Below are positions 2,580-38,356 of a stretch of 38,660 bases of DNA, piece after piece. The translations under genes were made by a program, and so were the position numbers. The stretch lies in UHGV virus genome UHGV-0366580. One strand, given 5' to 3'. Origin of the DNA: a virus. The notes beneath the pieces were generated by a model. That model saw nothing but the letters and a program-made list of their open reading frames with translations. It was not told where the DNA came from and searched no databases. Every line of letters starts with the position of its first letter. The first letter of the stretch is position 1.

Positions 2580-3512
2580 ATGACTGATATTAACGATGTA
2601 ATCAAGACCATTGATGAACTTATTGATGGCGGCGTACTGACGCAGTATGCCATCGCCAGAGAGGCGGGAATTTCCGATGGCACATTATCGGCTTTCCGTA
2701 AGGGAAAATATAAAGGCGATAACGCTGCTGTGGCTGCTTCCCTGCGTTCCTGGTATGAGAACTGGAATAAACAAAGCGCACTGCCCGAGCCGCCGCAGTT
2801 TGTGGAAACGCAGACAGTCCAGGAGCTGCGCGCGCTGTTTCAGGCGGTCCGCCTGATGGGCTGTATTAACGTCATAGTGGGCGTGCCCGGGGTGGGTAAA
2901 ACGGCCACCGCCCGTAATTACTGCCAGGAGCAACCAAACACCTGGATGATCACCCTGTCTCCCGCGCATTCCAGCGTCACGGAGTGTCTGCTGGAGCTGG
3001 CCGATGCGCTGGGGATTGATTATACCCGCGCGAACAAAGGGGCGTTATCCCGCGCCATCCGCCGTCGCCTGATGGGAACGCGTGGACTGGTGATTGTGGA
3101 TGAGGCGGATCATCTTGGTATTGACGGTCTGGAGCAACTCCGGGCAATCCAGGACGCCACGGGGATCGGGATGGTGCTTATTGGTAACCCGCGCGGACTG
3201 TTTAAGGGGGGGCGCCGCGCCGTTGATGATTTATCGCGCCTGTTCAGCCGTCTTGCCCGTACAAAACAACTTCGCAAGGCCAAAAAGGCGGATGTGCTGG
3301 CTATTGCCAGGGCGTGGGGTATCAGTGGTGAGGCCGAGCTGGCCGTCATGCAGGCTATCGCTGAAAAACCGGGAGCATTACGTGTTCTGACACATACGCT
3401 TAACCAGGCATGGATCACCGCCAGTGGTGAAGGCGCGGCGCTGACAGAAAAACATATTAATGCGGCCTTTAAAGAGGTTTATACCAACCCTGAATTACTC
3501 TCACAGGTGTGA
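2580..3512 (+). CDS. Mu B-like transposition ATPase (target DNA activator)
   Basis: 310 aa; Walker A GVPGVGKT and Walker B LVIVDEADHL; follows the A gene as in Mu. Confidence 0.88.
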   Translation: MTDINDVIKTIDELIDGGVLTQYAIAREAGISDGTLSAFRKGKYKGDNAAVAASLRSWYENWNKQSALPEPPQFVETQTVQELRALFQAVRLMGCINVIVGVPGVGKTATARNYCQEQPNTWMITLSPAHSSVTECLLELADALGIDYTRANKGALSRAIRRRLMGTRGLVIVDEADHLGIDGLEQLRAIQDATGIGMVLIGNPRGLFKGGRRAVDDLSRLFSRLARTKQLRKAKKADVLAIARAWGISGEAELAVMQAIAEKPGALRVLTHTLNQAWITASGEGAALTEKHINAAFKEVYTNPELLSQV

Positions 3513-3736
3513 TTATGATTGCATTTAATATTCCTGATATTTACGGACGCTTTCACCTGGTGAATTTCGATAACGTCAAAGCAGTCTCCGTGTCTGACAG
3601 TGAAGAATGTGGCGATTTACTTTTTGAATTTAATGATCGCACCAGAATGGTGATATCTGCCGGACTTGATCGTGAAGGTGCGAAAGAAGCTTACAGCAAT
3701 ATTTGTCGTTTTATCGGTGCAAAACGAATCAGCTAA
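3509..3736 (+). CDS. Hypothetical small protein (kil position)
   Basis: 75-aa ORF overlapping the B stop (GTGTGA); position only, no recognisable motif. Confidence 0.4.
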   Translation: MIMIAFNIPDIYGRFHLVNFDNVKAVSVSDSEECGDLLFEFNDRTRMVISAGLDREGAKEAYSNICRFIGAKRIS

Positions 3737-3748
3737 ACGAGGTGTTAT

Positions 3749-4003
3749 ATGAATATGCAATCCTGCGGTAACAAAATGAATTTATTCGACTCCCTGAACA
3801 GCGCGCGCCGTCTGACCGAACTTGCCGGTGCGGTACTGGAACGCAGTAAGCGCTACCCACAACGTTTTGCACTGAAAACCACGCCGCCGGTAGGCAACGT
3901 GCAGGGAACCGGTGAAATTGAAATCACCATACAGACCAACGGCCTGCGCCGCCGTGTGAAGGCCACCCGCATCAGCGGCTGCACGGTTTACTGGGAGGTG
4001 TGA
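3749..4003 (+). CDS. Hypothetical protein
   Basis: 84-aa ORF in the operon direction; no recognisable motif. Confidence 0.4.
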   Translation: MNMQSCGNKMNLFDSLNSARRLTELAGAVLERSKRYPQRFALKTTPPVGNVQGTGEIEITIQTNGLRRRVKATRISGCTVYWEV

Positions 4004-4078
4004 GGTGAAAAAAATCTCATTGCATGGGCGTGGTCGAGTGGTCTTATTGAGTTTGGTTACGTCCTGCCGGAAGGTGCA

Positions 4079-4285
4079 TTGCCGATAGTTGCCGGAAAGC
4101 CTGCCACGGTACGGCATGTGATTGAGGTTATGGCGCGTCATGGACGTGATGAACAGGAGCAGTTACTGGTTCCGGGGATACCGGAAGCGGTGACGGAGGA
4201 AGAAGCCTTTAATGCCATGATTCGGTTCTGCCGTGAGGTTAGACGCCGGGTCAGTTATCCAAACAGAACGAGGACCAGAGGATGA
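4079..4285 (+). CDS. Hypothetical protein (start uncertain: TTG 4079 or ATG 4127)
   Basis: ORF track calls a TTG start; internal ATG at 4127 has a GAGG 3 nt upstream. Confidence 0.3.
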   Translation: MPIVAGKPATVRHVIEVMARHGRDEQEQLLVPGIPEAVTEEEAFNAMIRFCREVRRRVSYPNRTRTRG

Positions 4286-4554
4286 GTAAAGTCGTACGCA
4301 TTATTTTCGAATACAAGGAAGATGTTATCTGCAAAAACTCTGATGGCAGCACGCACAGAGGGGTAAGTCTGGATATACGTTCAACCGGAATAAAGAAGAA
4401 AGATAATGGACCCGCCATGATTTTTGGGGTGGTTATGCTGGCAGAAAGCAGAAACTTCGCAGAGTTTGTGGCAATGAAAGCCAGTGCATTCATGAAAGAC
4501 AGAGGTATGGCTTCCGGGGTTATTAACGGTAATGAATTTAATCAACAGGGGTAA
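4282..4554 (+). CDS. Hypothetical protein, paralogue 1 of a tandem pair
   Basis: 90 aa, N-terminus MSKVVRIIFEYKEDV; overlaps upstream stop. Confidence 0.45.
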   Translation: MSKVVRIIFEYKEDVICKNSDGSTHRGVSLDIRSTGIKKKDNGPAMIFGVVMLAESRNFAEFVAMKASAFMKDRGMASGVINGNEFNQQG

Positions 4555-4558
4555 TTCC

Positions 4559-4852
4559 ATGAGCAAAGTACGCGTTATTTTTGAATTTAATCATGTTTCG
4601 CATGACGAAAAGTTGGCAGGCAATGACTGTGTTGAAGTGCATGAAAAGATTGGAGTGGATGTGAAAACAGAACGTGATACGGATAACAGGCCGACGTCAC
4701 TCTGTGACGTTTATGCAAGTATTCTCCAGTATCACAGTCCTGCAATTATTCAGTTTCTCTCAGCGGAATTTCAGGCATCTGCACAGTCTTTTGGAGCGGA
4801 TGCCATCATTAAACGCCACCGCGTGCATAAAGCATCAGGCACACTGCAATAA
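4559..4852 (+). CDS. Hypothetical protein, paralogue 2 of a tandem pair
   Basis: ATG at 4559 gives MSKVRVIFEFNHVSHDE, sharing the N-terminal motif with the upstream ORF; the ORF-track start at 4532 is less likely. Confidence 0.45.
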   Translation: MSKVRVIFEFNHVSHDEKLAGNDCVEVHEKIGVDVKTERDTDNRPTSLCDVYASILQYHSPAIIQFLSAEFQASAQSFGADAIIKRHRVHKASGTLQ

Positions 4853-4863
4853 GGAAAAACAAA

Positions 4864-5394
4864 ATGGCTAAACGCGTTACAAAATTAAAGGCCGCAGCCG
4901 AGGCGGCACCGCAGACCCGGGAAGAAGTCAGCCGTGATATCCGCACCCTGGGAGATATTCAGCGAGAGGCGCTGCGCCTGGAAACGGCGATGAATGACGA
5001 AGTGGCAGAAATCACCGCCCGTTATACGCCGCAGATTGAAAATCTTAAAAAGCAAATCAAAGTGCTTTTTAAAGGGATTCAGGACTGGTGCAAAACCAAC
5101 CGTGATGAGCTGACGAACGGCGGCAAAACCAAAACAGCCAATCTGACCACCGGAACGGTGTCATGGCGGCTGGGAACGCCATCATGCAGCGTCAGCCGTG
5201 ATGTGGAAGGTGTGATTGACACGCTGCGCCGTATGGGGCTTGAGCGATTCATCCGCACGAAAGAGGAAGTGAACAAGGAAGCCGTCCTGGCGGAGCCGGA
5301 TGCGGTGAAAGGCATTGCCGGTATAAAGGTGAATAAAGGCGCTGAAAGTTTTTATGTCGAGCCTTTTGAACAGGATGCCGGACTGAATAAATAA
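4864..5394 (+). CDS. gam: Gam-like host-nuclease inhibitor (DNA end-binding)
   Basis: 176 aa; resembles Mu Gam as recalled from memory, in the expected position. Confidence 0.8.
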   Translation: MAKRVTKLKAAAEAAPQTREEVSRDIRTLGDIQREALRLETAMNDEVAEITARYTPQIENLKKQIKVLFKGIQDWCKTNRDELTNGGKTKTANLTTGTVSWRLGTPSCSVSRDVEGVIDTLRRMGLERFIRTKEEVNKEAVLAEPDAVKGIAGIKVNKGAESFYVEPFEQDAGLNK

Positions 5395-5491: not shown

Positions 5492-6034
5492 ATGGCATAT
5501 TTTTATTTCAAATTAGACCGTGTGCAGACAAATAAATATTTCACCAAATATCAACAGGCTGTTTTACCGCTACGCAACAGTATTCTTCGGACATTACTGA
5601 AAAATACAGGCGCTGCCGGATTGCGCTTAAAGCCGTTCGCCATGGACAGAATCAGTGAGTTTTATTTTGCCGGTGCTCTGCCTGCGGGCTGGCGTAAGCG
5701 CGATGATGTGGCTTTTATCGGTGGCGGACAGTGCTTTATAGCCAGACCTGATGAGTCATGCCCTGAAGGACCGGCGATTGCCGCAATGATTGAAGCCGCT
5801 GAACGCGAGTTAAGAAAGCGTCCTGATTTCCTTGTCTGGCTCTGTGAAAAGCTGGGGGTAATGAGAATCCCCTCCATGTTTAACACGGACTCCTGGTGGA
5901 CCCCTTCGTTCTCCCGTGATGCCCTGTGCGTGGTGTTTAAAGTGGGCGCTTATGGCAGGGAAATAAACGGATGTATTCCTGAAGAATGCCAGGAAATTAA
6001 ACATTCTGAATATGTGGCGCTGACGGAGGAATAA
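5492..6034 (+). CDS. Hypothetical protein (accessory, semi-essential region)
   Basis: 180-aa ORF with AAGGAA RBS 8 nt upstream; no recognisable domain. Confidence 0.45.
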   Translation: MAYFYFKLDRVQTNKYFTKYQQAVLPLRNSILRTLLKNTGAAGLRLKPFAMDRISEFYFAGALPAGWRKRDDVAFIGGGQCFIARPDESCPEGPAIAAMIEAAERELRKRPDFLVWLCEKLGVMRIPSMFNTDSWWTPSFSRDALCVVFKVGAYGREINGCIPEECQEIKHSEYVALTEE

Positions 6035-6037
6035 TTC

Positions 6038-6571
6038 ATGATTGATGCAAAAGTGCTTGAAGGGGTTAAAAACTGGCTGAGTATTTACGGGCGTCTGACC
6101 TGCGGCGTACTGGCTGAAAAAATGAATATGCCGCCATCCTCCATGGTTTATTTTCTGCGTGATGCGGTTGATGCCGGGGTGCTGACGGAATGTAACGGTT
6201 TTTATGATATTCCGCGTCCCCGCCCGGTGCAGCCGATTCGTCGCAAATGCAGACAGGAATCTGCGGCTGATGATGTTCAGTGGTGCAGCTTCAGAAAATC
6301 CCTGCCATGGATTGAGGGGCATGATATTCCGTCGATGGCGTGGGAATTTGCTCAGGGCGTTCTGACCTGTGAAACCGTTTATGTGGTGGCTGAAGTTGAT
6401 GAGCAGGCCATGAAAGAAGGCGTGCCCCAGTTTGTGATGGCGTATATCGACATTCGCCTGGGTGTCATCATCTGCGGTTTAAGCGGCTGGAATATCACCG
6501 CGCGTGTTCTGCGCTACCTGATTGTTGACCGGACAGCAGCGCCTGCCGGGATATCTGCGGAGGTGGCGTAA
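6038..6571 (+). CDS. Hypothetical protein, possible N-terminal winged-helix
   Basis: 177-aa ORF, tightly packed after the upstream gene; function unknown. Confidence 0.45.
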   Translation: MIDAKVLEGVKNWLSIYGRLTCGVLAEKMNMPPSSMVYFLRDAVDAGVLTECNGFYDIPRPRPVQPIRRKCRQESAADDVQWCSFRKSLPWIEGHDIPSMAWEFAQGVLTCETVYVVAEVDEQAMKEGVPQFVMAYIDIRLGVIICGLSGWNITARVLRYLIVDRTAAPAGISAEVA

Positions 6572-7086
6572 TGTTCTTTAAAACATCAAACCCTTCCGCG
6601 CTGGCTGCGTGGCAAAAATACCAGCAGGACTGCCAGACGGTAAAAGATGAGGCGAAACGCCTTGAGGCCGTGCTGAATGTTGCGTGCCGGTCGGTATTTG
6701 AATTCAGTATCAGTGGTTTTTGTTTTAAGGGACTGCGTTTTACGGAGGACAAATATCCTTTTCATCGCGACTTATGGCGAAAACCGACTGCGTCGAATGG
6801 CTGGAGCTGCACACCGCGCACATCACGTATCCCTAAAACCCTGCGTGTTGCCTCTGATGAACTGAACAGTCTGTGGCGTGAATATTCGCCCGTCACGTAT
6901 GCCAGAACCGATGCGCTGTTGTTCTGGTTGGGTATTGATTTCTCGGCAATCCTGTTTGGCCCTGTGAAGTGGTTCTGCGTTGACGATGTGATTTACCTTC
7001 AGTGCGGCGTAAAACCCGCAAAACAGAAAATGACCGAAATACTGTCTGATGAGTTTTATGCTGCTGAAAAGCGAGTCAGGGGGTGA
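6571..7086 (+). CDS. Hypothetical protein
   Basis: 171-aa ORF; start overlaps upstream stop (TAATG). Confidence 0.45.
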   Translation: MFFKTSNPSALAAWQKYQQDCQTVKDEAKRLEAVLNVACRSVFEFSISGFCFKGLRFTEDKYPFHRDLWRKPTASNGWSCTPRTSRIPKTLRVASDELNSLWREYSPVTYARTDALLFWLGIDFSAILFGPVKWFCVDDVIYLQCGVKPAKQKMTEILSDEFYAAEKRVRG

Positions 7087-7089
7087 TGT

Positions 7090-7641
7090 ATGATGATTTT
7101 ACAACACATGGGGCGAAAAGGTCGTACACCCGCTCATGTCCGCGCGTGGACACCTGAAGAAGATGCGCTACTGATTGCGCTTTATTCATCCACCCCGGTT
7201 AAGGATATTGCTGCCAGAATAAAAAGAACTGTCTGGGCTGTATATAACCGGACTGGTGTATTGCGCAGTTCATACCCGGAGTTACTGAAATATAAACACC
7301 CAAGATTTACACCTGATGAAGATAAGTTTATTCGAAAAAATGCCAGAACAATGACCTGCCAGCAAATGGGAGAATATCTCGGACGTAATAAAGATTCTGT
7401 CAGATGTCGGGCAGGAATGATTGGTGCTGGATTAACAAAGTGCGGAGAGTTACGCCCCGGCACGCGCATATCTGATGATGATGTACGTCTTATACGTGCG
7501 CTGCGTGATTCCGATTACCCACGCCGTCTGTCATTCCGGGAAATTGGCGAAAAGTTTGGAATATCTGAACATTCTGCTCACGCAGTTTATTACCGTCGCC
7601 GGACTGCCGAGGACGCTGTATTACGGGAGTTAACGCCATGA
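7090..7641 (+). CDS. Hypothetical DNA-binding protein with three tandem HTH-like repeats
   Basis: 183 aa; three ~45-aa repeats beginning WTPEEDALLIAL, FTPDEDKFIRKN and ISDDDVRLIRAL. Confidence 0.5.
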   Translation: MMILQHMGRKGRTPAHVRAWTPEEDALLIALYSSTPVKDIAARIKRTVWAVYNRTGVLRSSYPELLKYKHPRFTPDEDKFIRKNARTMTCQQMGEYLGRNKDSVRCRAGMIGAGLTKCGELRPGTRISDDDVRLIRALRDSDYPRRLSFREIGEKFGISEHSAHAVYYRRRTAEDAVLRELTP

Positions 7642-7970
7642 TAACGACCTTATTTGTTGAATCAGATGAACCTCTTGTGTGTGCCGCCGGAATGCCGCTC
7701 TGTGGCGGAACGCTGACCGGCGTTTATTTCGGGGATTTGCGCGGTTATCCCTGGCATTCACTGGATGACGCATTTCCGCCTGATATGGAGGCTGTCGTGC
7801 TGATTGTTCAGTATGGTGACCAACAGGAACTGCGCATCGGCCATATGGGGTATGAAGGCTTTTTTATTGATGAAGAAACCGGAGCCTGCCTTGAAGATGA
7901 GGACGGACAGGTGACGCACTGGTGCCATCTTTCGGCCTTGCCGGAATTACAGGGGATGCATAATGGATGA
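7638..7970 (+). CDS. Hypothetical protein
   Basis: 110-aa ORF; start overlaps upstream stop. Confidence 0.4.
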   Translation: MITTLFVESDEPLVCAAGMPLCGGTLTGVYFGDLRGYPWHSLDDAFPPDMEAVVLIVQYGDQQELRIGHMGYEGFFIDEETGACLEDEDGQVTHWCHLSALPELQGMHNG

Positions 7971-8106
7971 GCAAATTGTTGAATGTCCCACCTGTGGAAA
8001 TGAGGACCCGGAGTATCTGAAAGAGTGCCCACATTGTGGTGAGATAAAATGTAACCACTGCGATATGGGCGACGACACTGCATGTATAAATTGTGAGGAT
8101 GAATAA
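7963..8106 (+). CDS. Small zinc-ribbon protein, 47 aa (four CxxC motifs); absent from ORF track
   Basis: ATG 7963 (overlapping upstream stop as ATGGATGA) to TAA 8104-8106: MDEQIVECPTCGNEDPEYLKECPHCGEIKCNHCDMGDDTACINCEDE. Confidence 0.5.
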   Translation: MDEQIVECPTCGNEDPEYLKECPHCGEIKCNHCDMGDDTACINCEDE

Positions 8107-8107
8107 T

Positions 8108-8395
8108 ATGGAAAAAGAAATCAAATTTGCGCCTAAATCTATCGACGAAGAACTGGCTAAAATCGGCATGCTTGAACGTATGCGGGACATTATCGAATAT
8201 GCGATAAAAGAAAATCTTGCAGCCAGAGAAGCCCTTTTGATAATGGAGCGGGAGATTAACCTGATTAAGGATGCTGTATCTCTGGATAATAAAATAGCCC
8301 GCGAGGAATACGTTCGCCGTAGGCTCGGTGTTGATGGTTCAGCAATTCTTACATCTGAACATTATGCAAAAATTTTTAATCTTTTTCAGCGGTAA
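8108..8395 (+). CDS. Hypothetical protein
   Basis: ATG at 8108 (MEKEIKF...) right after the zinc-ribbon stop; the ORF-track start at 8093 overlaps it. Confidence 0.4.
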   Translation: MEKEIKFAPKSIDEELAKIGMLERMRDIIEYAIKENLAAREALLIMEREINLIKDAVSLDNKIAREEYVRRRLGVDGSAILTSEHYAKIFNLFQR

Positions 8396-8615
8396 TCCCC
8401 ATACAGGCCCGGAGATTGTCGAAATGCCAGTCGGTATTAATATATGAGCCATCCTGGATATCTTCTGCATTTTCCGGGGTAGAGTTTTTTTGAGCGAGAT
8501 TGATAATATGTATTGCCTCCTCACGGGAAATCAGCCCCTTATCGAACAGGGTTACCATAAGATTTCCAGCCATTGTGAATGCGGCAACATCAAGTGCATT
8601 TTTTATATCTGACAT
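8376..8615 (-). CDS. Hypothetical protein on the opposite strand to the early operon
   Basis: 79-aa minus-strand ORF filling a 290-bp gap with no + strand ORF; AAGGAAAA RBS upstream of its ATG. Confidence 0.35.
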   Translation of the reverse strand: MSDIKNALDVAAFTMAGNLMVTLFDKGLISREEAIHIINLAQKNSTPENAEDIQDGSYINTDWHFDNLRACMGITAEKD

Positions 8616-8643
8616 AGATTTTTCCTTTTATGTTAATTGACAT

Positions 8644-8672
8644 GGCGGTGCGGTAACACCGCCCATTTTTTA
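8644..8672 (+). terminator. Candidate intrinsic terminator (GGCGGTG/CACCGCC stem, then T6)
   Basis: 7-bp perfect stem 8644-8650/8657-8663, 6-nt loop, followed by CATTTTTTAT. Confidence 0.5.
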
Positions 8673-8685
8673 TGGAGCCACGATA

Positions 8686-9198
8686 ATGAATCGCGCTTCC
8701 CTGATTACCTTAATACATGTCGCAAAACGCGATCTACAGCTTGACCATGATACCTATACATCCGCGCTGCTGGCAGCCACCGGCAAATCCAGTTGCCGTG
8801 ATATGTCACCCGGTGAGTTATCCCGCGTGCTGGATGTTTTCAAAAAACGCGGTTTTAAAGTGCGTCAGAAGCCGGTTAACCGGGCCTTAAAACCGGGTAC
8901 GGTGACCGCCAAAATTCGCGCCATCTGGAAAGTGATGCACCGGCAGGGATTTATCTCTGATGGCGGGGAAACGGCCCTTAACCGCTGGGTGAAATCGCAG
9001 ACGGCCGCGCAGAACGACGGCGAAGGTGTGGCTAACTGGCAGTGGCTGGAGCAACAACCCGCGCTGGCCTCTGATGTGCTGGAGCGTCTCAAACGCTGGC
9101 ACCGCCGCAAAATGCTGGCAGCCCTGGATATGTCGGAACGTGCAGTGATGAGTTATGAGCGTGTTTGCAGGCTGTATGAAAAATCATTCCCCCGTTAA
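8686..9198 (+). CDS. gemA: GemA-like protein (Mu gp16 family)
   Basis: 170 aa; N-terminal LITLIHVAKRDLQLDHDTY pattern and position upstream of the Mor/C gene. Confidence 0.7.
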   Translation: MNRASLITLIHVAKRDLQLDHDTYTSALLAATGKSSCRDMSPGELSRVLDVFKKRGFKVRQKPVNRALKPGTVTAKIRAIWKVMHRQGFISDGGETALNRWVKSQTAAQNDGEGVANWQWLEQQPALASDVLERLKRWHRRKMLAALDMSERAVMSYERVCRLYEKSFPR

Positions 9199-9202
9199 CC
9201 CC

Positions 9203-9233
9203 AAATCCCGCCACAGCGCGGGATTTTTATTTT
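9203..9233 (+). terminator. Candidate intrinsic terminator (AAATCCCGC/GCGGGATTT stem, then TTATTTT)
   Basis: 9-bp stem 9203-9211/9219-9227 followed by a T-run; sits where Mu has its early-transcript terminator. Confidence 0.6.
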
Positions 9234-9268
9234 AAACTTGCCCTGTGTAATGATGACCGGAGGCGGGT

Positions 9269-9691
9269 ATGGCTGAAACACAGATGAGCATGTTTGGTGA
9301 CAGCGAACAGCTGCACGCGCTGATTGACCGTCTGGATGATATTCCTGATGATGAGCTGAAAAAGAACTGGCCCGGCACGCTGCGGGACCTGGTTGATGTG
9401 ATCAGTGCTGAACTGCACCGTCAGGGGATTGAACCTGCTCAGGCGGGAATGCTTGCCCGTAAGGTTGCAGCCGCACAGGCCGGGTACATGGGCGGGCGTG
9501 GTTATTATCTCCCGGTCGGTGAATCCCTTTTCACCGAACTGCGCAATAATGAAATTTTTTCCCGCTGGAGCCAGGGCGAAAAAATTGAAACCCTGCGCCG
9601 CCATTACCGGATGTCAGAAACCCAGATTTACACCGTCATACGCGAACAGCGCCGTCTGCATCTGGCAAGAACGCAACCGCCACTTTTCTGA
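9269..9691 (+). CDS. Mor/C-family transcription activator (middle or late regulator)
   Basis: 140 aa; C-terminal region resembles the Mor/C family as recalled from memory; directly precedes the lysis and structural genes. Confidence 0.7.
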   Translation: MAETQMSMFGDSEQLHALIDRLDDIPDDELKKNWPGTLRDLVDVISAELHRQGIEPAQAGMLARKVAAAQAGYMGGRGYYLPVGESLFTELRNNEIFSRWSQGEKIETLRRHYRMSETQIYTVIREQRRLHLARTQPPLF

Positions 9692-9762
9692 TATTCCGCA
9701 AAGCCTGCCGCCTTTCCTTCACCGTTACGCTGACTCAGAGAACATCATGAGACAGCGTAACA

Positions 9763-10263
9763 ATGCCAAAACTCCCCGCACCACTGCGTAAAAAGCTGAT
9801 TGCCCTTGTTCTGGCCGGTGCCGGGACGTTCACGATTGCCACGCATTACACCGGTTACTGGGAAGGGAAAGAAAACTCCACGTATATCGATCCCACCGGT
9901 ACACCCACCATCTGTTACGGCCATACCGGCCCGGATGTGAAACCGGGTATGACCCTGACGGATGAAGAATGCCTGGAACTGCTGGAAAAGGACATGAAAT
10001 GGGCCTTTGCGGCTATCGATCGTCATGTTCAGGTGCCGCTTACCCGTGGTCAGACGGTGGCGTTGGCCTCCTGGATTTTCTGGGCCGGTGAAACGAACTT
10101 TCGCAACTCCACGCTCCTGCGCCTTATCAATGCCGGGCAGATGCCCGCGTCCTGTAAGCAGTATATCCGCTGGATTTATTCAAAGGGGGTAAAACTCCCC
10201 GGTCTTGAGGCCCGCCGTTCGGCGGATGAATGGTTATGTCGTTACGATTTGCCGAAAGTCTGA
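9763..10263 (+). CDS. SAR-type endolysin (T4-lysozyme-like glycoside hydrolase)
   Basis: N-terminal weakly hydrophobic Gly/Ala-rich segment LIALVLAGAGTFTIATHY, then E...D...T catalytic pattern (YWEGKE..YIDPTGTPTICYGHTG). Confidence 0.8.
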   Translation: MPKLPAPLRKKLIALVLAGAGTFTIATHYTGYWEGKENSTYIDPTGTPTICYGHTGPDVKPGMTLTDEECLELLEKDMKWAFAAIDRHVQVPLTRGQTVALASWIFWAGETNFRNSTLLRLINAGQMPASCKQYIRWIYSKGVKLPGLEARRSADEWLCRYDLPKV

Positions 10264-10937: not shown

Positions 10938-11165
10938 ATGGATGATTCAGATCGTGCTCAGGCTGTGATGGAGCGGGGATCAGAACGCGCCCTTTGTAAC
11001 CGGCTGACACGTAAGTGCCGGGCAATGGATGCTCCGGGCAGACGTGTCTGCGCAGACTGTGGCGGAGAGATCCCCGCCGCACGTCTTGTTGCTGTGCCGG
11101 ATGCCATCCGTTGTGTGAACTGCCAGAACATCATGGAGGCCCGTCATGTGGGTCAGCATCGTTAA
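10938..11165 (+). CDS. TraR/DksA-family C4 zinc-finger protein
   Basis: 75 aa with CADCGGEIP...RCVNCQ four-cysteine motif. Confidence 0.7.
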   Translation: MDDSDRAQAVMERGSERALCNRLTRKCRAMDAPGRRVCADCGGEIPAARLVAVPDAIRCVNCQNIMEARHVGQHR

Positions 11166-11454: not shown

Positions 11455-11741
11455 GTGATTTCATTACTGAAGATCAGCGTCTGGTCATTCTGCGGTCGCT
11501 GGCAGATTACAACGGTGAACTGGGTGAATCCGTGCTCCAGGACTGTCTGGATGATTACGGTCACCGCGTGTCCCGCGACACCGTTCACACCCACATTGCC
11601 TGGCTTACCGAACAGGGACTGGTGCGCAAACGCGTTCTGATTAACGGTTATTTCATCGCAGAGCTGACCGGCCGGGGGCAGGATGTGGCGGAAGGCCGCG
11701 CCAGTGTTCCGGGTGTGAAGAAACCACGCGCAAGGGGGTAA
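11451..11741 (+). CDS. Hypothetical protein (Mu gp26-like position)
   Basis: 96-aa ORF translationally coupled to neighbours. Confidence 0.45.
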   Translation: MSDFITEDQRLVILRSLADYNGELGESVLQDCLDDYGHRVSRDTVHTHIAWLTEQGLVRKRVLINGYFIAELTGRGQDVAEGRASVPGVKKPRARG

Positions 11742-16887: not shown

Positions 16888-16971
16888 GTCGGTGGCGGGG
16901 GTCGAACCCGCATAAACATCCCTCAGGAAAAAACCATCAGGCGCCGCTTTACCAGTTAAGAGTACACCGAC
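16888..16971 (-). other. tRNA-like element or degenerate tRNA remnant
   Basis: Minus strand: 7-bp acceptor stem GTCGGTG/CACCGAC, U8-A9, D-loop-like TAACTGGTAAAG with GG, canonical T-arm GCGGG-TTCGACC-CCCGC; no clean anticodon stem found; no CCA. Confidence 0.35.
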
Positions 16972-17009: not shown

Positions 17010-17483
17010 ATGTCATCCATTGATGCCGCTGTCGTTGTTGACGTTACGCGTCTCCAGCGGGTGTTTGCCCGGCTTCAGTTTGTGGGGGGCGGAAAAGACC
17101 TGGCCCGCAGTGTGGCGTCCAGCCTTCTGTCATCCTCAGAAATGGCGTTTGAACAGGAAAAAGAGCCGGACGGCGAACGCTGGCATGACTGGTCAGATCC
17201 TTACCGCAAGTGGCGTACCCGTAAGGGATACACGCCCGGCAAAATCCTGACGCTGAACGGCGATCTGGCCCGCCGCCTGACCACGGATTATGGCGATACC
17301 TGGGCGCTGATTGGATCAAATGAACCTTATGCAGCCATTCATCAGTGGGGTGGCCTGCCTGGTATGCCACCGGGACTGGCAGCCATTGGCGCACGTCCGT
17401 ATATGGGCTTTGATGAGGTGGCTGAACAGGAGATCATGGACGAAATCAGAAAACGCTTTAAAAAGGCCACAGAAACGCCTTAA
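17010..17483 (+). CDS. Mu G-like virion morphogenesis protein
   Basis: 157 aa; position between F-like and I-like genes. Confidence 0.7.
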   Translation: MSSIDAAVVVDVTRLQRVFARLQFVGGGKDLARSVASSLLSSSEMAFEQEKEPDGERWHDWSDPYRKWRTRKGYTPGKILTLNGDLARRLTTDYGDTWALIGSNEPYAAIHQWGGLPGMPPGLAAIGARPYMGFDEVAEQEIMDEIRKRFKKATETP

Positions 17484-17659
17484 TTGTTTAAGGTATGCAA
17501 ATGCATTACCTTACCCCCTTCAGGCGCGTGTCGTGATTTTCTAACCTGTATTTAACGGGCTTTAAAATCTGCGTGAAGCGCCTTTGTATTTTTCCCCTGA
17601 AAGCACTTCCTGAAATCCCGCAAAACCCGCCCTGAAAATTCCCGGCTTATGCTGCCGGA
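17484..17659 (+). promoter_or_regulatory. G-I intergenic region: candidate late promoter and/or strong gyrase site
   Basis: 176-bp non-coding gap at the genome centre; three direct CCTGAAA repeats (17596, 17609, 17631) upstream of the I start. Confidence 0.4.
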
Positions 17660-33218: not shown

Positions 33219-33779
33219 ATGCTGATTGGCTATATACGCGTATCAACAAATGACCAGAACACAGGTTTACAAAGAAATGCGCTGGAATGTGCAGGATGTG
33301 AGCAGATTTTTGAAGACAAAATGAGTGGTAAAACGACGCAGCGGCCGGGACTGAAGCGGGCACTGAAGAAACTAAAACCCGGCGACACACTGATGGTCTG
33401 GAAACTGGACAGGCTGGGGCGCAGTATGCGCCACCTTGTTGCGCTGACAGATGAATTACAGCAACAGGGGATAAATTTTCGTAGTCTTACTGACAACATT
33501 GATACGTCAACCCCCATGGGGCGCTTCTTTTTTCACATAATGGGTGCGCTGGCAGAAATGGAGCGTGAATTGATTGTCGAACGGACACGGGCTGGTCTTG
33601 CTGCTGCCCGTGAAAGGGGACGAACCGGCGGCAGACCCCGTCGTCTCACGCAGGAACAATACGAGCAGGTCGGGCGTTTACTGGCCGGGGGTGTCAGCCG
33701 AAGACAGGTGGCACTTATTTTTGATATCGGCCTTTCAACCCTTTATCGTTATTATCCTGCGAGCGTTTCGGAAAAATAA
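33219..33779 (+). CDS. gin: Gin DNA invertase (serine recombinase, Hin/Gin/Pin/Cin family)
   Basis: 186 aa; MLIGYIRVSTNDQ catalytic-serine motif and C-terminal HTH; closely resembles Mu Gin as recalled from memory. Confidence 0.92.
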   Translation: MLIGYIRVSTNDQNTGLQRNALECAGCEQIFEDKMSGKTTQRPGLKRALKKLKPGDTLMVWKLDRLGRSMRHLVALTDELQQQGINFRSLTDNIDTSTPMGRFFFHIMGALAEMERELIVERTRAGLAAARERGRTGGRPRRLTQEQYEQVGRLLAGGVSRRQVALIFDIGLSTLYRYYPASVSEK

Positions 33780-35918: not shown

Positions 35919-35953
35919 AAAAAATCCCGCCGGTCATGATATGGCTGGCGGGA
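35916..35953. terminator. Hairpin with upstream A8 tract (on the minus strand: hairpin followed by T8)
   Basis: TCCCGCCGG...CTGGCGGGA 9-bp stem immediately after the esterase stop. Confidence 0.45.
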
Positions 35954-36067
35954 GCTACCTAACCCATAAAGGAAAATAAAAATACTCCCGAAGGAGTAGT
36001 TACCAGTCACTTCGTCATGTTTTTACCCGATAACGAATTATGTAGTCAATATCAAAGGTAAGGTTAT

Positions 36068-36599: not shown

Positions 36600-37149
36600 G
36601 GGAGAACAGGCAGGGCATATCAGCATCCTGAAACAGGAAGCATTTTTTGGTTTGTATGTCTTGCCATTTTGAGATCGAGAACGGCGATAGATGAGCTGTA
36701 AGGGAGTCTTACAGGCAGGGTAAACAGGCTCTTTATCCATGATAAAGATCTCCTTTTTATGCATCTCTGCTTTACAGGAGACCGGGGAATATCATAGGAT
36801 ACGCCACGAGCTCGAAGTAAAGCATTGATGCAAAATTGTCTAAATCGGCCCAGAATAGTTCGCGCTATCTGGGTCGCCCTTTATGTATGTAGTATCCCAT
36901 TGATTTGAAACATACTACATATACGCACAATCCTACCTTCACTGTATAAAAAGTCAATAAAATGATCATTTTATGATCGTTTTCACCACCTAACTCTTCG
37001 TTTTCTTTAAGTAAGTAATCACCGCCCTGAATCATTGTTGATGACTTTTCAATCTATTTGTTGTATCAATTAAACAAACCGAATCGATCGTTTTTGTCGA
37101 TCGATTGCATGAGAAAGGCATCAACAACAAAGCAGGAGGTTATGCGGCC
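36600..37149 (+). promoter_or_regulatory. AT-rich non-coding region upstream of com with GATC clusters and inverted repeats (candidate mom-type late promoter)
   Basis: GATC at ~36673, 36748, 36964, 36976, 37086, 37098; AATCGATCG-N7-CGATCGATT inverted repeat at 37082-37106. Confidence 0.45.
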
Positions 37150-37335
37150 ATGTATCGAAACATACGGTGCCGACACTGCAATAAGCTACTGGCACGGGCC
37201 AGTTTCAGTTATCTGGAAGTAAAATGTCCGCGCTGCAAAACCCTCAATCAAATCACATCTCAGAGCGCCACAGAGCACCCCACATACACAAGGAAATCCT
37301 GCCGTGGGGAACAAGAAACATTACTTTCAGTCTGA
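37150..37335 (+). CDS. com: Com-like zinc-finger translational activator
   Basis: ATG 37150 with AGGAGG RBS (TTG at 37105 is the upstream alternative); RCRHCNKLL...KCPRCK motif; 3' end overlaps the next gene by 32 nt. Confidence 0.75.
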   Translation: MYRNIRCRHCNKLLARASFSYLEVKCPRCKTLNQITSQSATEHPTYTRKSCRGEQETLLSV

Positions 37336-38356
37336 TAAGTCACTAACCTATGGTTCAGTATGCAGTGGTATTGAAGCTGCGACAGTAGCCTGGAGCAATC
37401 TTGGCTGGAAAGCCAGATGGTTCAGTGAAATAGAGGACTTCCCGTCAACACTTCTTTCATATCGCTGGCCCCATATACCAAATCTTGGTGATATGGCTTT
37501 GCTTGCGCCTCGTATCAGGGATGGGCTTATTGAAGCACCAGATATTCTTGTAGGTGGAACTCCGTGTCAGGCATTCAGTATGTCAGGCAAACGAAAAGGC
37601 CTTTCAGATCCACGGGGGCAGTTAACACTGTCTTTTGTTGAACTGGCGAATCAGATAGATACCGTTCGGGCATCGCTCAATAAATCCCCCTCAATAATCG
37701 TATGGGAAAACGTCACAGGAGTTTTAAGTAGCCATGACAATGCATTCGGTCATTTTCTTGGTGCGCTGGCCGGAGCAGGTTGCGCATTACAGCCAGCAAG
37801 GAAAAGATGGGCAAACGCTGGTGTTGTGTCTGGACCATCGCGTATCGTCGCCTGGCGAGTACTTGATGCCCAATATTTCGGAGTCGCCCAGGCTCGCAGA
37901 AGAGTGTTTGTTGTGGCAAGTGCTGGAAAAAGGCTCGATCCCGGAAAGGTATTATTTGAGTTCCCGCCTGTGTCGCAGGGCGATAAAAACTATTACGGAA
38001 AGAAGAAAAAATCCGAATCCCTTCTTGATCAAGGCATTGAAGGAAAATTGCACCGATATTGCCTTGAAGCATTGCCAAAACGAACAGGCACAGTAATAGC
38101 TGGCTATAACGGAACAACTAACCAGGACATGACTATGTCTGGTGGGCTCATAGTTGAAAGAGCGCCATATTCAAGGGTTCGTAGGTTGACGCCAACCGAA
38201 TGCGAGAGGCTACAAGGTTTTCCCGATGGATATACAGATATTCCATGGAAAAATTCATCTCCAGCTCATCGTTATAAGGCCATTGGAAATTCAATGCCTG
38301 TACCGGTCATGAAATGGATTGGTCGAAGAATACAGGAAGCGTTAAACGAAGTTTAA
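37304..38356 (+). CDS. C5-cytosine DNA methyltransferase (Dcm-like), in the position Mu uses for mom
   Basis: 350 aa; motifs GGTPCQAFSMSG (PCQ), ENV (IVWENVTG), QARRR, ERLQGFPDGYT, AIGNSMPVPV; GTG start inside the com 3' end. Confidence 0.85.
   Translation: MGNKKHYFQSDKSLTYGSVCSGIEAATVAWSNLGWKARWFSEIEDFPSTLLSYRWPHIPNLGDMALLAPRIRDGLIEAPDILVGGTPCQAFSMSGKRKGLSDPRGQLTLSFVELANQIDTVRASLNKSPSIIVWENVTGVLSSHDNAFGHFLGALAGAGCALQPARKRWANAGVVSGPSRIVAWRVLDAQYFGVAQARRRVFVVASAGKRLDPGKVLFEFPPVSQGDKNYYGKKKKSESLLDQGIEGKLHRYCLEALPKRTGTVIAGYNGTTNQDMTMSGGLIVERAPYSRVRRLTPTECERLQGFPDGYTDIPWKNSSPAHRYKAIGNSMPVPVMKWIGRRIQEALNEV

Follow-up and report, generated by a model that had tools for sequence, protein, structure and literature searches.

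A single C-type activator gene behind a predicted early terminator in a Mu-like prophage of Escherichia coli

Phage Mu uses two paralogous activators, Mor and then C, in a three-tier cascade. What becomes of this cascade in a Mu-like prophage in which only one such gene can be recognized, and what is the role of the two terminator-like hairpins that lie on either side of its gemA gene? The window analyzed here is the whole stretch of 38,660 bases, a Mu-like prophage of E. coli of the Sp18 type (Sp18 being its relative in O157:H7). The two hairpins and the lone Mor/C gene are confirmed, and the genes run in the order gemA, hairpin 2, one C-type activator and lysozyme (Table 1). The finding is largely ordinary, because one activator, rather than the two of Mu, is the usual layout of such phages; the interpretation that a first-pass annotation had placed on the locus is, as a whole, partly supported. 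We consider it probable, though by no means assured, that a single C-type activator behind the hairpin 2 terminator commands a two-tier cascade and that hairpin 1 is no part of a designed bracket.

TABLE 1 Features of the gemA-activator region and predicted late promoters in the window
Feature	Coordinates	Strand	Remarks
Leftward gene, 79 aa	8376..8615	-	Variable cassette just upstream of gemA
Hairpin 1, gemA-leader stem-loop	8644..8671	+	Stem-loop 8644-8663, T6 8666-8671; at most a weak terminator in the window lineage
gemA (gp16 family), last early-operon gene	8686..9198	+	Pfam GemA PF06252, 1.8e-28
Hairpin 2, predicted canonical intrinsic terminator	9203..9233	+	Stem-loop 9203-9226, T tract to 9233
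Candidate -10 hexamer TAAACT	9233..9238	+	Abuts T tract of hairpin 2; putative promoter for activator gene
Sole Mor/C-family gene, C (late activator) type, 140 aa	9269..9691	+	Pfam Mor, 1e-30
Plys-like late promoter (predicted)	9688..9731	+	Box CTGATATTCCGCAAAGCCTGCC 9688-9709; -10 TACGCT 9726-9731
Lysozyme, first late gene	9763..10263	+	No terminator between it and activator gene
PI-like late promoter (predicted), before head protease gene	17610..17653	+	Box CTGAAATCCCGCAAAACCCGCC 17610-17631; -10 TATGCT 17648-17653

One Mor/C-family gene of the C type

The first-pass annotation had seen only one Mor/C-family activator and proposed an HMM search for another. Run over the whole window (hmmsearch --max with a profile of Mor, C and the window protein, against all stop-to-stop frames of at least 25 aa in six frames), that search returned no second member, the next-best frame having an E value of 0.87. 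Of 20 small early and late ORFs scanned against Pfam, one matched Mor, and single-sequence searches with filters off likewise gave no second activator. The Mu-type arrangement for a three-tier cascade, two paralogues with mor in the early operon, is thus absent from the window. The annotation had also wondered whether the second activator was too divergent to spot. Several early ORFs (3509-4852 and 5492-7086) carry no family assignment and might house a Mor/C-like activator beyond the reach of sequence methods, but Mor and C are themselves 37% identical, the profile finds members in phages of Vibrio, Burkholderia and Shewanella, no other frame in the window scored better than the value above, and single-activator phages are the rule. 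We find a hidden paralogue hardly credible.

The protein encoded at 9269-9691 matches Pfam Mor with 106.3 bits against a cut-off of 24.9, over profile positions 2-107 of 107, and falls in phrog_532, "late transcriptional activator." It is closer to Mu C (40% identity, 112 bits; PDB 9l0x, 7e-29) than to Mor (28%, 58 bits; PDB 1rr7, 4e-11). Its β-strand linker, GGRGYYLPVGE, aligns with GGRQFYIPCGD of Mu C and has the pattern GG..Y.P.G, with G75, G76, Y80, P82 and G84 invariant in a three-way alignment, and its helix-turn-helix region aligns to C in 9l0x. The gene also adjoins a Plys-like promoter and the lysis genes. By sequence and by place it is a C-type activator gene, and the earlier observation that it is placed after a strong terminator, like Mu C, holds: hairpin 2 precedes it. 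The protein may bind a site centered near -43.5 and activate sigma-70 promoters that lack a -35; the evidence for this is indirect, a 22-nt box that recurs upstream of two TAnGCT hexamers.

How common is such an arrangement? The gemA-hairpin 2-activator-lysozyme layout occurs in ~231 of 5,426 complete E. coli genomes (about 4%), including O157:H7. Three architectures were found among 90 loci from GTDB and IMG/VR, and in isolated transposable phages two family members were found by tblastn only in Mu-type phages. In published work the "late regulator Mor/C" counts as a single marker gene (PMC8705779), and one activator as the norm is also supported elsewhere (PMC9239132). One activator is therefore the norm in transposable phages, and since the search of isolated phages showed two only in Mu-type phages, the suggestion that the regulatory cascade may be rewired was overstated. 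TraR/DksA was considered as a marker of one-activator phages and rejected; Mu gp24, which occupies that position too, shares its Cys pairs, so it is no real difference from Mu. These counts correct a Mu-centered expectation: the textbook two-activator cascade is the exception, and a prophage family common in pathogenic E. coli appears to run on one C-type activator behind an early terminator. How a gene behind a good terminator is activated without Mor would tell the timing of the late genes, including lysis, a matter that touches a prophage present in that same share of complete E. coli genomes.

The two hairpins around gemA

Membership of gemA in its family is clear (Pfam GemA, 100.3 bits against a curated cut-off of 27; phrog_286, 1.7e-53); a GGAG lies at 8674-8677, and the stop codon is at 9196-9198. 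Rfam and tRNA scans of the window gave no matches. A generic terminator scan was not enriched overall (15 sites against 12.9 expected in 12 kb), so it is folding and conservation that speak for the hairpins.

Hairpin 2 (AAATCCCGC cacagc GCGGGATTT, then TTTTTATTTT) begins 5 nt past the gemA stop codon and ~40 nt before the activator gene. It has the G+C-rich stem (9 bp, with a 6-nt loop) and the T run directly after it that define an intrinsic terminator. Its fold (-13.5 kcal/mol, z = -4.5) was equaled in stability by none of 200 shuffles; the annotated Mu terminator after mor gave -12.2 and z = -4.1 in the same test. Both the E. coli relatives examined and C-only prophages of Kluyvera and Erwinia keep the hairpin immediately before the activator gene, and its stem, TCCCGC/GCGGGA, is unchanged in the phages of all three. 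One relative (L004) carries a two-gene insertion flanked by two copies of hairpin 2, while L027 has lost the left arm, which L011 and L074 lack as well. A role of the conserved stem as a protein-binding site was dropped, the motif (ATCCCGCC-N5-GCGGGATTTT) being a widespread phage terminator with at least 126 sites in IMG/VR, 95 of them not beside Mor or GemA genes. We read hairpin 2 as a conserved canonical intrinsic terminator, predicted to end the early operon and, largely, early rightward transcription. Placed before the activator gene, it would insulate that gene in the lysogen and delay it after induction, the job done in Mu by the Mor step.

Hairpin 1 is of another kind. It comprises GGCGGTG, the loop cggtaa and CACCGCC, followed by CA and T6, so that 2 nt separate the stem from the T run; as the first-pass annotation had it, a hairpin with a T run lies 14 nt upstream of the gemA ATG (8686). 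Alone, its fold is unexceptional (-13.3 kcal/mol, z = -1.3; 22 of 200 shuffles fold as well). The stem is nevertheless kept in 10 distinct variants from Mu-like phages, in which 70 of 70 cells pair against 29-70% in slid controls, and compensatory changes affect both members in two of the seven pairs. The T run is unconserved: Mu has CCCTTTCC, and most variants are missing it. In the O157-type, CI5 and CP55 relatives the hairpin itself is missing, and there gemA and the gene before it share 4 nt. Hairpin 1 is, on this comparative evidence, a conserved gemA-leader stem-loop of many Mu-like phages, Mu included, rather than a conserved terminator. Since the window sub-lineage happens to carry T6, the hairpin may attenuate transcription into gemA here.

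Just upstream lies the leftward 79-aa gene, which converges on an early gene at 8093-8395. It matches phrog_32893 over its full length (1.3e-45), has an AAGGA Shine-Dalgarno sequence 7 nt before its ATG and is annotated by PGAP in a 98% relative. It was found in the window and in L002, L024, L027, L043, L044, L047 and L048; L006 has a DUF2513 gene in its place, and the O157 type is without it. Hairpin 1 may have come with this cassette in the window sub-lineage.

The description of gemA as bracketed by two terminator-like hairpins therefore stands insofar as both hairpins are present and the first has a T6 here; it does not stand as a conserved design, given the relatives without hairpin 1 and a stem-loop that usually has no T run elsewhere. 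A stronger version would make gemA a unit with its own promoter at hairpin 1, closed off by two terminators and insulated from the early promoter. The homologous hairpin of Mu does lie within the semi-early promoter region annotated in the Mu record (8151-8217), and in the window a CTGACA-N18-TTAATT would place a transcription start at, or within, the left arm of hairpin 1, so that its transcripts would be without the full hairpin and early transcripts would contain it. That element, however, matches at 8 of 12 positions and was unreported by the promoter scan. The unconserved T run, its 2-nt offset from the stem, a fold no better than shuffles, and close relatives in which the hairpin is gone and gemA is translationally coupled to the upstream gene make such an insulated unit distinctly unlikely.

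Late promoters and a two-tier cascade

Two predicted late promoters share a 22-nt box. The box of the Plys-like promoter overlaps the activator stop codon, and the promoter core is homologous to that of Mu Plys (TTACGCTGAC-TCAGAGAAC versus TTAGACTGCCATCAGAGAAT). In 40 relatives, conservation covers the box and the -10 region but not the ~13 intervening nt, a footprint pattern. The PI-like promoter lies between G and I, the intergenic region that harbors PI in Mu; its predicted start site coincides with the protease start codon, so its mRNA would be leaderless. Box-to-TAnnCT spacing is the same at the two sites. Allowing up to three mismatches, the box has only these two matches in the window, with 0 expected, though they are also the sites from which the pattern was made. 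A third or fourth late promoter with a PP-like or Pmom-like copy was not found in the window, which leaves a "regulon" of two sites. Compared to the homologous box of Mu and L012, that of the window family stands 7 bp further from the -10.

The activator probably drives the Plys-like and PI-like promoters via this shared box. If the C-type protein alone serves as late activator and turns on both, the cascade would have two tiers (early to activator to late) compared to three in Mu.

How the activator gene may be switched on

Behind its terminator, the activator gene might be reached through read-through, self-activation or another early regulator. We favor residual read-through from the early promoter, a weak promoter at TAAACT, or both. 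TAAACT is weak as a -10, no -35 was found for it, and the consensus promoter scan did not report the candidate. The hexamer is nonetheless common to the window type and the O157 type, though the next ~15 nt differ, and in Kluyvera, Erwinia and other C-only lineages the matching place holds TATACT, TATAAT or TATGCT, with differing leaders. An alternative -10, TGTAAT (9246-9251), would center the hairpin at -43.5 but is unconserved in the O157 type; TAAACT is preferred on this pattern of conservation. A Mor/C-dependent promoter would have an activator box centered near -43.5 upstream of a -10 without a -35; the element after hairpin 2 shows a -10-like hexamer and no -35, but no recognizable box. 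The sequence upstream of hairpin 2 is unconserved among window-family variants and is replaced in L004, L021 and L031; together with the loss of the left arm in L027, this means that no conserved activator site can be named.

Could the activator nevertheless switch on its own gene? The promoter abutting hairpin 2 would then depend on the C-type activator, with the left arm AAATCCCGC as its box; a trickle of read-through would prime positive feedback, and one element would serve as terminator in RNA and as activated promoter in DNA. This 9-mer is identical to the PI-like box core and almost identical to the Plys-like one, Mu Plys and Pmom likewise have a T run up against the -10 and lack a -35, and the window has no other Mor/C protein to serve such a promoter. 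When elements from Kluyvera, L012 and L050 are aligned on the -10, they put AATCCCGC within 1 nt of where Mu Plys has ATAATCCCGC, and by eye some comparisons looked promising, such as TGTCATCAACAATCC in L008 against TGTCA-CCATAATCC in Mu Plys. A C-box position matrix made from six Mu-type late promoters, which scores true sites at 17-25 and Mu Pm at 9.0, tells otherwise: in Mu-C-like relatives it detected no C box in the matching regions, the elements upstream of the C gene scoring from -6 to 1.3 (the top 4-36% of background). The 9-mer of the window stands 5 bp nearer to its hexamer, TAAACT, than do its counterparts in the two late promoters, and the box flanks mismatch; L011, L074 and L027 do without the left arm. 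The stem is also generic, and with 95 of 126 IMG/VR sites unrelated to Mor or GemA the 9-mer match may be chance. An enrichment of AWATYCCGC (14 matches against 1.6 expected) was left unused, as the matches were mostly in coding DNA, the pattern was post hoc and the expectation came from dinucleotide shuffles that did not keep codon structure. Because the matrix picks up Mu Pm yet leaves these elements at background, self-activation was downgraded to a rival, and we hold it to be doubtful.

A non-homologous early regulator could alternatively stand in for Mor and preserve three tiers. The candidate is a 183-aa protein (7090-7641) with three Myb/SANT-like repeats, which would activate the activator-gene promoter. 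It has Pfam HTH/Myb hits and matches phrog_323, "transcriptional regulator, D5-like" (5.8e-52), a function that is an annotation; its gene occurs in window-family loci whose flank reaches that far and has no homologue in Mu-type loci. The protein is, however, absent from the Kluyvera, Erwinia and L049 C-only phages, all of them sharing the hairpin and the -10 element, and no binding motif was identified for it. A replacement of this kind seems to us quite improbable, and read-through with or without the weak TAAACT promoter remains the route that we prefer.

Comparison with known systems

The closest parallels lie with C, Plys and PI of Mu. The activators belong to the same family and subtype, and in both phages the lysis genes come right after the activator gene. 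The promoter between activator and lys is homologous to Mu Plys in the -10, the start region and the ATAATCCCGC / ATATTCCGC box, and a second boxed promoter occupies the G-I intergenic region, as PI does. The linker GGRxxYxPxG and the contact residues S110, Q113 and Y115 are retained (residue roles from bioRxiv 10.1101/2025.05.02.651988). In contrast, identity to C is 40%, and three of six helix-turn-helix contact residues differ (R98E, Q116T, R120E). The window gene is first in a unit directly behind the early terminator, whereas Mu C is fourth in a Mor-dependent middle operon. Unlike in Mu, the terminator scan found no terminator between the activator gene and lysozyme. The boxes also differ from those of the Mu late promoters in their spacing and in the missing PP-like and Pmom-like copies noted above.

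In Mu, the early-operon terminator overlaps promoter Pm (PMC4390567). The window resembles this arrangement in having an intrinsic terminator directly after a gemA-containing early operon, the next unit within tens of bases, and an overlap of terminator and putative promoter. It differs in being without mor, in its hairpin (TCCCGC versus AGCCGG in Mu), in a -10-like hexamer that abuts the T run (that of Mu is ~11 nt beyond) and in having no recognizable Mor/C-type box in the element.

Single activators elsewhere are arranged somewhat differently. In BcepMu, phiE255, Vibrio martha 12B12 and Pseudoalteromonas HS6 and in Mor-only prophages of Klebsiella and Raoultella, as in the window, one family member beside gemA is the sole known late regulator (PMC8705779). 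BcepMu-type records match under adjacent activator and GemA annotations. In the Mor-only loci examined and in the Idiomarina-type L013 and L014, the stop-to-stop frames of gemA and the activator overlap, which puts the activator right behind gemA inside the early operon, whereas the window has a terminator between the two. Mor-only and C-only types both exist in present enterobacteria. We speculate that the Mor-then-C cascade of Mu is a chimera of two single-activator lineages, in which a Mor-only phage supplied gemA-mor-Pm-gp18 and a C-only phage supplied C-Plys-lys, and that in phages like this one the terminator before the sole activator gene doubles as an activator-driven promoter at which read-through flips an all-or-none switch in place of the Mor step. 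We hold such readings to be unlikely.

The O157:H7 Sp18-type prophage belongs to the same family. It differs from the window in being without hairpin 1 and the leftward gene and in the 15 nt from TAAACT to the Shine-Dalgarno sequence, yet it shares ~87% nucleotide identity over gemA, activator and lysozyme, and the same hairpin 2 and Plys-like box.

A single activator of the C type

The window is a Mu-like prophage of E. coli, with genes arranged as in the table below. Prophages in several E. coli chromosomes match its 8300-9800 region at 98% identity, and 'inserted Mu-like phage' regions in two Stx phage records do so at 91%. At a coverage threshold of at least 80%, segment 8600-9800 was present in 231 of 5426 complete E. 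coli genomes, many O157:H7 strains among them.

Features of the window and their coordinates
Feature	Coordinates	Remarks
Ner-like gene	168-416	Left end of window
Transposase A	418-2508	
B gene	2580-3512	
Gam	4864-5394	Followed by a run of small early genes
Early protein, 183 aa	7090-7641	Three Myb/SANT-like repeats (W/F-T-P-E/D-E-D)
Leftward gene, 79 aa	8376-8615	phrog_32893 (1.3e-45); between last early gene and gemA; window and some relatives
Hairpin 1	8644-8663	5' of gemA
gemA	8686-9198	
Hairpin 2	9203-9226	3' of gemA
Activator gene	9269-9691	Single Mor-family gene
Plys-like promoter	9688-9731	Box and -10
Lysozyme	9763-10263	Followed by head and tail genes
TraR/DksA zinc-finger gene	10938-11165	Within lysis region
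PI-like promoter	17610-17653	
Gin-like invertase	33219-33779	Precedes cargo protein
Cargo protein, 679 aa	33879-35918	Sialate O-acetylesterase-like domain (SASA) and DUF6645
C-5 cytosine DNA methylase	37304-38356	

The first-pass annotation had recognized only one gene of the Mor/C family, and wider searching found no second member: a profile built from Mor, C and the window's own protein, searched without filters through all stop-to-stop frames of the 38.6 kb, had its sole match at 9257-9688 (next match, E = 0.87), and of 20 small ORFs scanned with Pfam one matched Mor. Sequence comparison places this protein in the C type. It shares 40% identity with Mu C (112 bits) versus 28% with Mor (58 bits), Mu C and Mor being 37% identical to each other, and among solved structures Mu C (9l0x, 7e-29) ranks far ahead of Mor (1rr7, 4e-11). 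The linker GG..Y.P.G is retained. Of six helix-turn-helix residues that are reported DNA contacts in the C complex (bioRxiv 10.1101/2025.05.02.651988), three are kept and three are changed; its DNA site is therefore expected to be related, not identical, to that of C.

A survey of 90 loci with 4-6 kb flanks, from GTDB species representatives and IMG/VR, yielded three layouts: Mu proper, gemA-mor-Pm-gp18(-19)-C-lys (23 loci); a C-only layout (28 loci of the window family and 8 of a Mu-C-like group); and a Mor-only layout (23 loci, plus Raoultella and Klebsiella), in which the activator directly follows gemA, with overlapping stop-to-stop frames, and is followed by gp18 with no C. By tblastn against isolated phages, two places per record were matched only in Mu, D108, SfMu, the Yersinia vB_YpM phages and PhiR68_1, and one place in the remaining matches listed (e.g., BcepMu, phiE255, martha 12B12, HS6, MuM16 and Pmp9). 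In reviews of transposable phages, too, 'the late regulator Mor/C' figures as a single marker gene (PMC8705779; PMC9239132). A single activator is thus the common state and the Mu cascade a special case.

Enterobacteria hold both C-only and Mor-only Mu-like prophages (compared loci L008-L012, L016-L018 and L049-L097, versus Mu itself, L003). Counterparts of Mu's mor, Pm and gp18 occur in the Mor-only type alone, and the nearest relatives of Mu's C, Plys and lys in the Mu-C-like C-only type. Mu might have arisen by recombination between two lineages with one activator each; alternatively, the others might have been derived by deletion.

The terminator before the activator gene

Hairpin 2, found where the first-pass annotation had placed it, starts 5 nt past the stop codon of gemA and reads AAATCCCGC-cacagc-GCGGGATTT, followed by TTTTTATTTT. 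Its predicted fold (-13.5 kcal/mol, z = -4.5, 0 of 200 shuffles as stable) is of the same class as the annotated terminator after mor in Mu (-12.2, z = -4.1); a generic terminator scan gave 15 sites versus 12.9 expected, with no overall enrichment. The hairpin is kept in the E. coli relatives examined, and its type also stands directly 5' of a C-type gene in Kluyvera, Erwinia and other enterobacterial prophages, again without mor. Right after the T run, these other prophages carry TATACT, TATAAT or TATGCT, and the window family TAAACT (9233-9238). This hexamer is retained despite differing downstream leaders, and in three variants without the hairpin or its left arm; it is probably the -10 of a promoter without a -35.

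The unchanged stem was also considered as a sign of protein binding and rejected: ATCCCGCC-N5-GCGGGATTTT is a generic phage terminator, occurring in IMG/VR at no fewer than 126 sites, of which 95 have no relation to Mor or GemA. In strain CP55 (1966-2776 of its locus), two genes are inserted between gemA and the activator with a copy of hairpin 2 on either side, and the terminator may be a joint at which small genes are inserted by recombination. Two-gene cassettes at this place, with one leftward and one rightward gene, occur in CP55 and in two further loci (L021, L031).

How the activator gene is switched on admits several explanations. Transcripts reading through the hairpin 2 terminator are one candidate. 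Self-activation via an element at hairpin 2 is possible but not supported, because a C-box matrix built from six Mu-type late promoters, which scores real sites at 17-25 and Mu Pm at 9.0, gave just -6 to 1.3 for the elements 5' of the C gene in Mu-C-like phages, and because the piece shared in the window family is only the 9-mer AAATCCCGC, 5 bp out of register. Another early regulator is also a candidate, for example the 183-aa early protein, which matches phrog_323 ('transcriptional regulator, D5-like', 5.8e-52) and is found in window-family loci whose flank extends to its position; no homologue was found in Mu-type loci.

Probable late promoters downstream of the activator

The 71-base gap between activator and lysozyme genes is homologous to Mu Plys, with a -10/start region reading TTACGCTGAC-TCAGAGAAC versus TTAGACTGCCATCAGAGAAT in Mu and an upstream box, ATATTCCGCAAAGCCTGCC, whose Mu counterpart is ATAATCCCGCACCTGCC. 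The box recurs in the intergenic region 5' of the head protease gene, the position of Mu PI, and in both copies a TAnGCT hexamer follows exactly 35 nt downstream. The pattern CTGAWATYCCGCAAARCCYGCC, built from these same two sites, matches nothing but them in the window at up to 3 mismatches, with none expected. At the Plys-like promoter, 40 relatives keep the box and the -10 region and vary in the ~13 nt between, as would be expected for an activator site plus a -10. We infer that the single activator drives both promoters. This reading is weakened because no boxed late promoters beyond these two were found in the window, the box lies 7 bp nearer to the -10 in Mu, and the predicted start of the protease transcript coincides with the protease start codon.

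The gemA leader

Hairpin 1 (GGCGGTG-cggtaa-CACCGCC, then CA and T6 at 8666-8671) likewise lies where first described, its T run ending 14 nt before gemA. Its energy is unremarkable (z = -1.3; 22 of 200 shuffles equally good). It is part of a variable cassette: in JKHS016 another leftward gene (DUF2513) and another hairpin fill the site, and the O157, CI5 and CP55 types have neither leftward gene nor hairpin, gemA and its upstream gene overlapping by 4 nt. A GGCGG..-loop-..CCGCC element stands ~20 nt before gemA in Mu, Mu-type IMG/VR contigs and Mor-only prophages, in Mu inside the annotated semi-early promoter region. Across 10 distinct variants all stem cells are paired, with two-sided changes in 2 of 7 pairs (TA to CG; GC to TA), and pairing falls to 29-70% in a slid-partner control. 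The T run is not conserved (Mu reads CCCTTTCC). Since the paired stem is widespread and the T run is not conserved, the conserved role of hairpin 1 is probably that of a gemA-leader element rather than an intrinsic terminator; it may be an operator, a 5' stabilizer or a processing site, and T6 may add some attenuation in the window lineage.

In Mu (AF083977), a leftward ORF 5' of gemA (7896-8162, minus; 88 aa) matches phrog_8747 at full length (6.6e-60) and has a weak match to the family to which the leftward gene of the window belongs. No PHROG matches the annotated Mu_54 (plus, 7960-8127); the wrong strand may have been annotated there.

Other features of the window

At the position of the TraR/DksA gene, Mu has gp24 (11524-11718), possibly a TraR-like protein that has diverged: the two align weakly (pairwise E = 0.018), with Cys pairs in register. 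In the 98% relative, PGAP places a 'tRNA-OTHER' between genes F and G (window ~16889-16968, minus); ARAGORN and Rfam returned nothing in the window. The G-I intergenic region opens with the near-palindrome AAGGTATGCAAATGCATTACCTT (17480-17530), matching the place of the strong gyrase site in Mu's record. A further hairpin, AAATCCCGCC...GGCGGGA (35922-35960), follows the cargo gene. Within 37040-38356, Mu's com-mom is replaced by the methylase and an overlapping small zinc-finger ORF (from ~37142), Com-like by eye; the preceding GATC cluster, AATCGATCG...GTCGATCGATT, is similar to the Dam/OxyR region that lies 5' of Mu Pmom.

Comparison with Mu

The first-pass annotation, which set gemA between two terminator-like hairpins and thought the cascade perhaps rewired, was right in its observations and partly so in its interpretation. 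Most of the biology is ordinary: prophage family and activator family are both known, and the terminator is canonical. What separates the window family from other one-activator phages is one feature, the terminator lying between gemA and the activator, and it raises a small but testable question on late-gene timing. In Mu, the annotated terminator (9179-9200) directly follows mor inside promoter Pm (9163-9233), where the binding site of Mor is a 16-bp element with its centre at -43.5 (PMC4390567); the window shares this logic without mor, passing from gemA through a terminator to the next unit.
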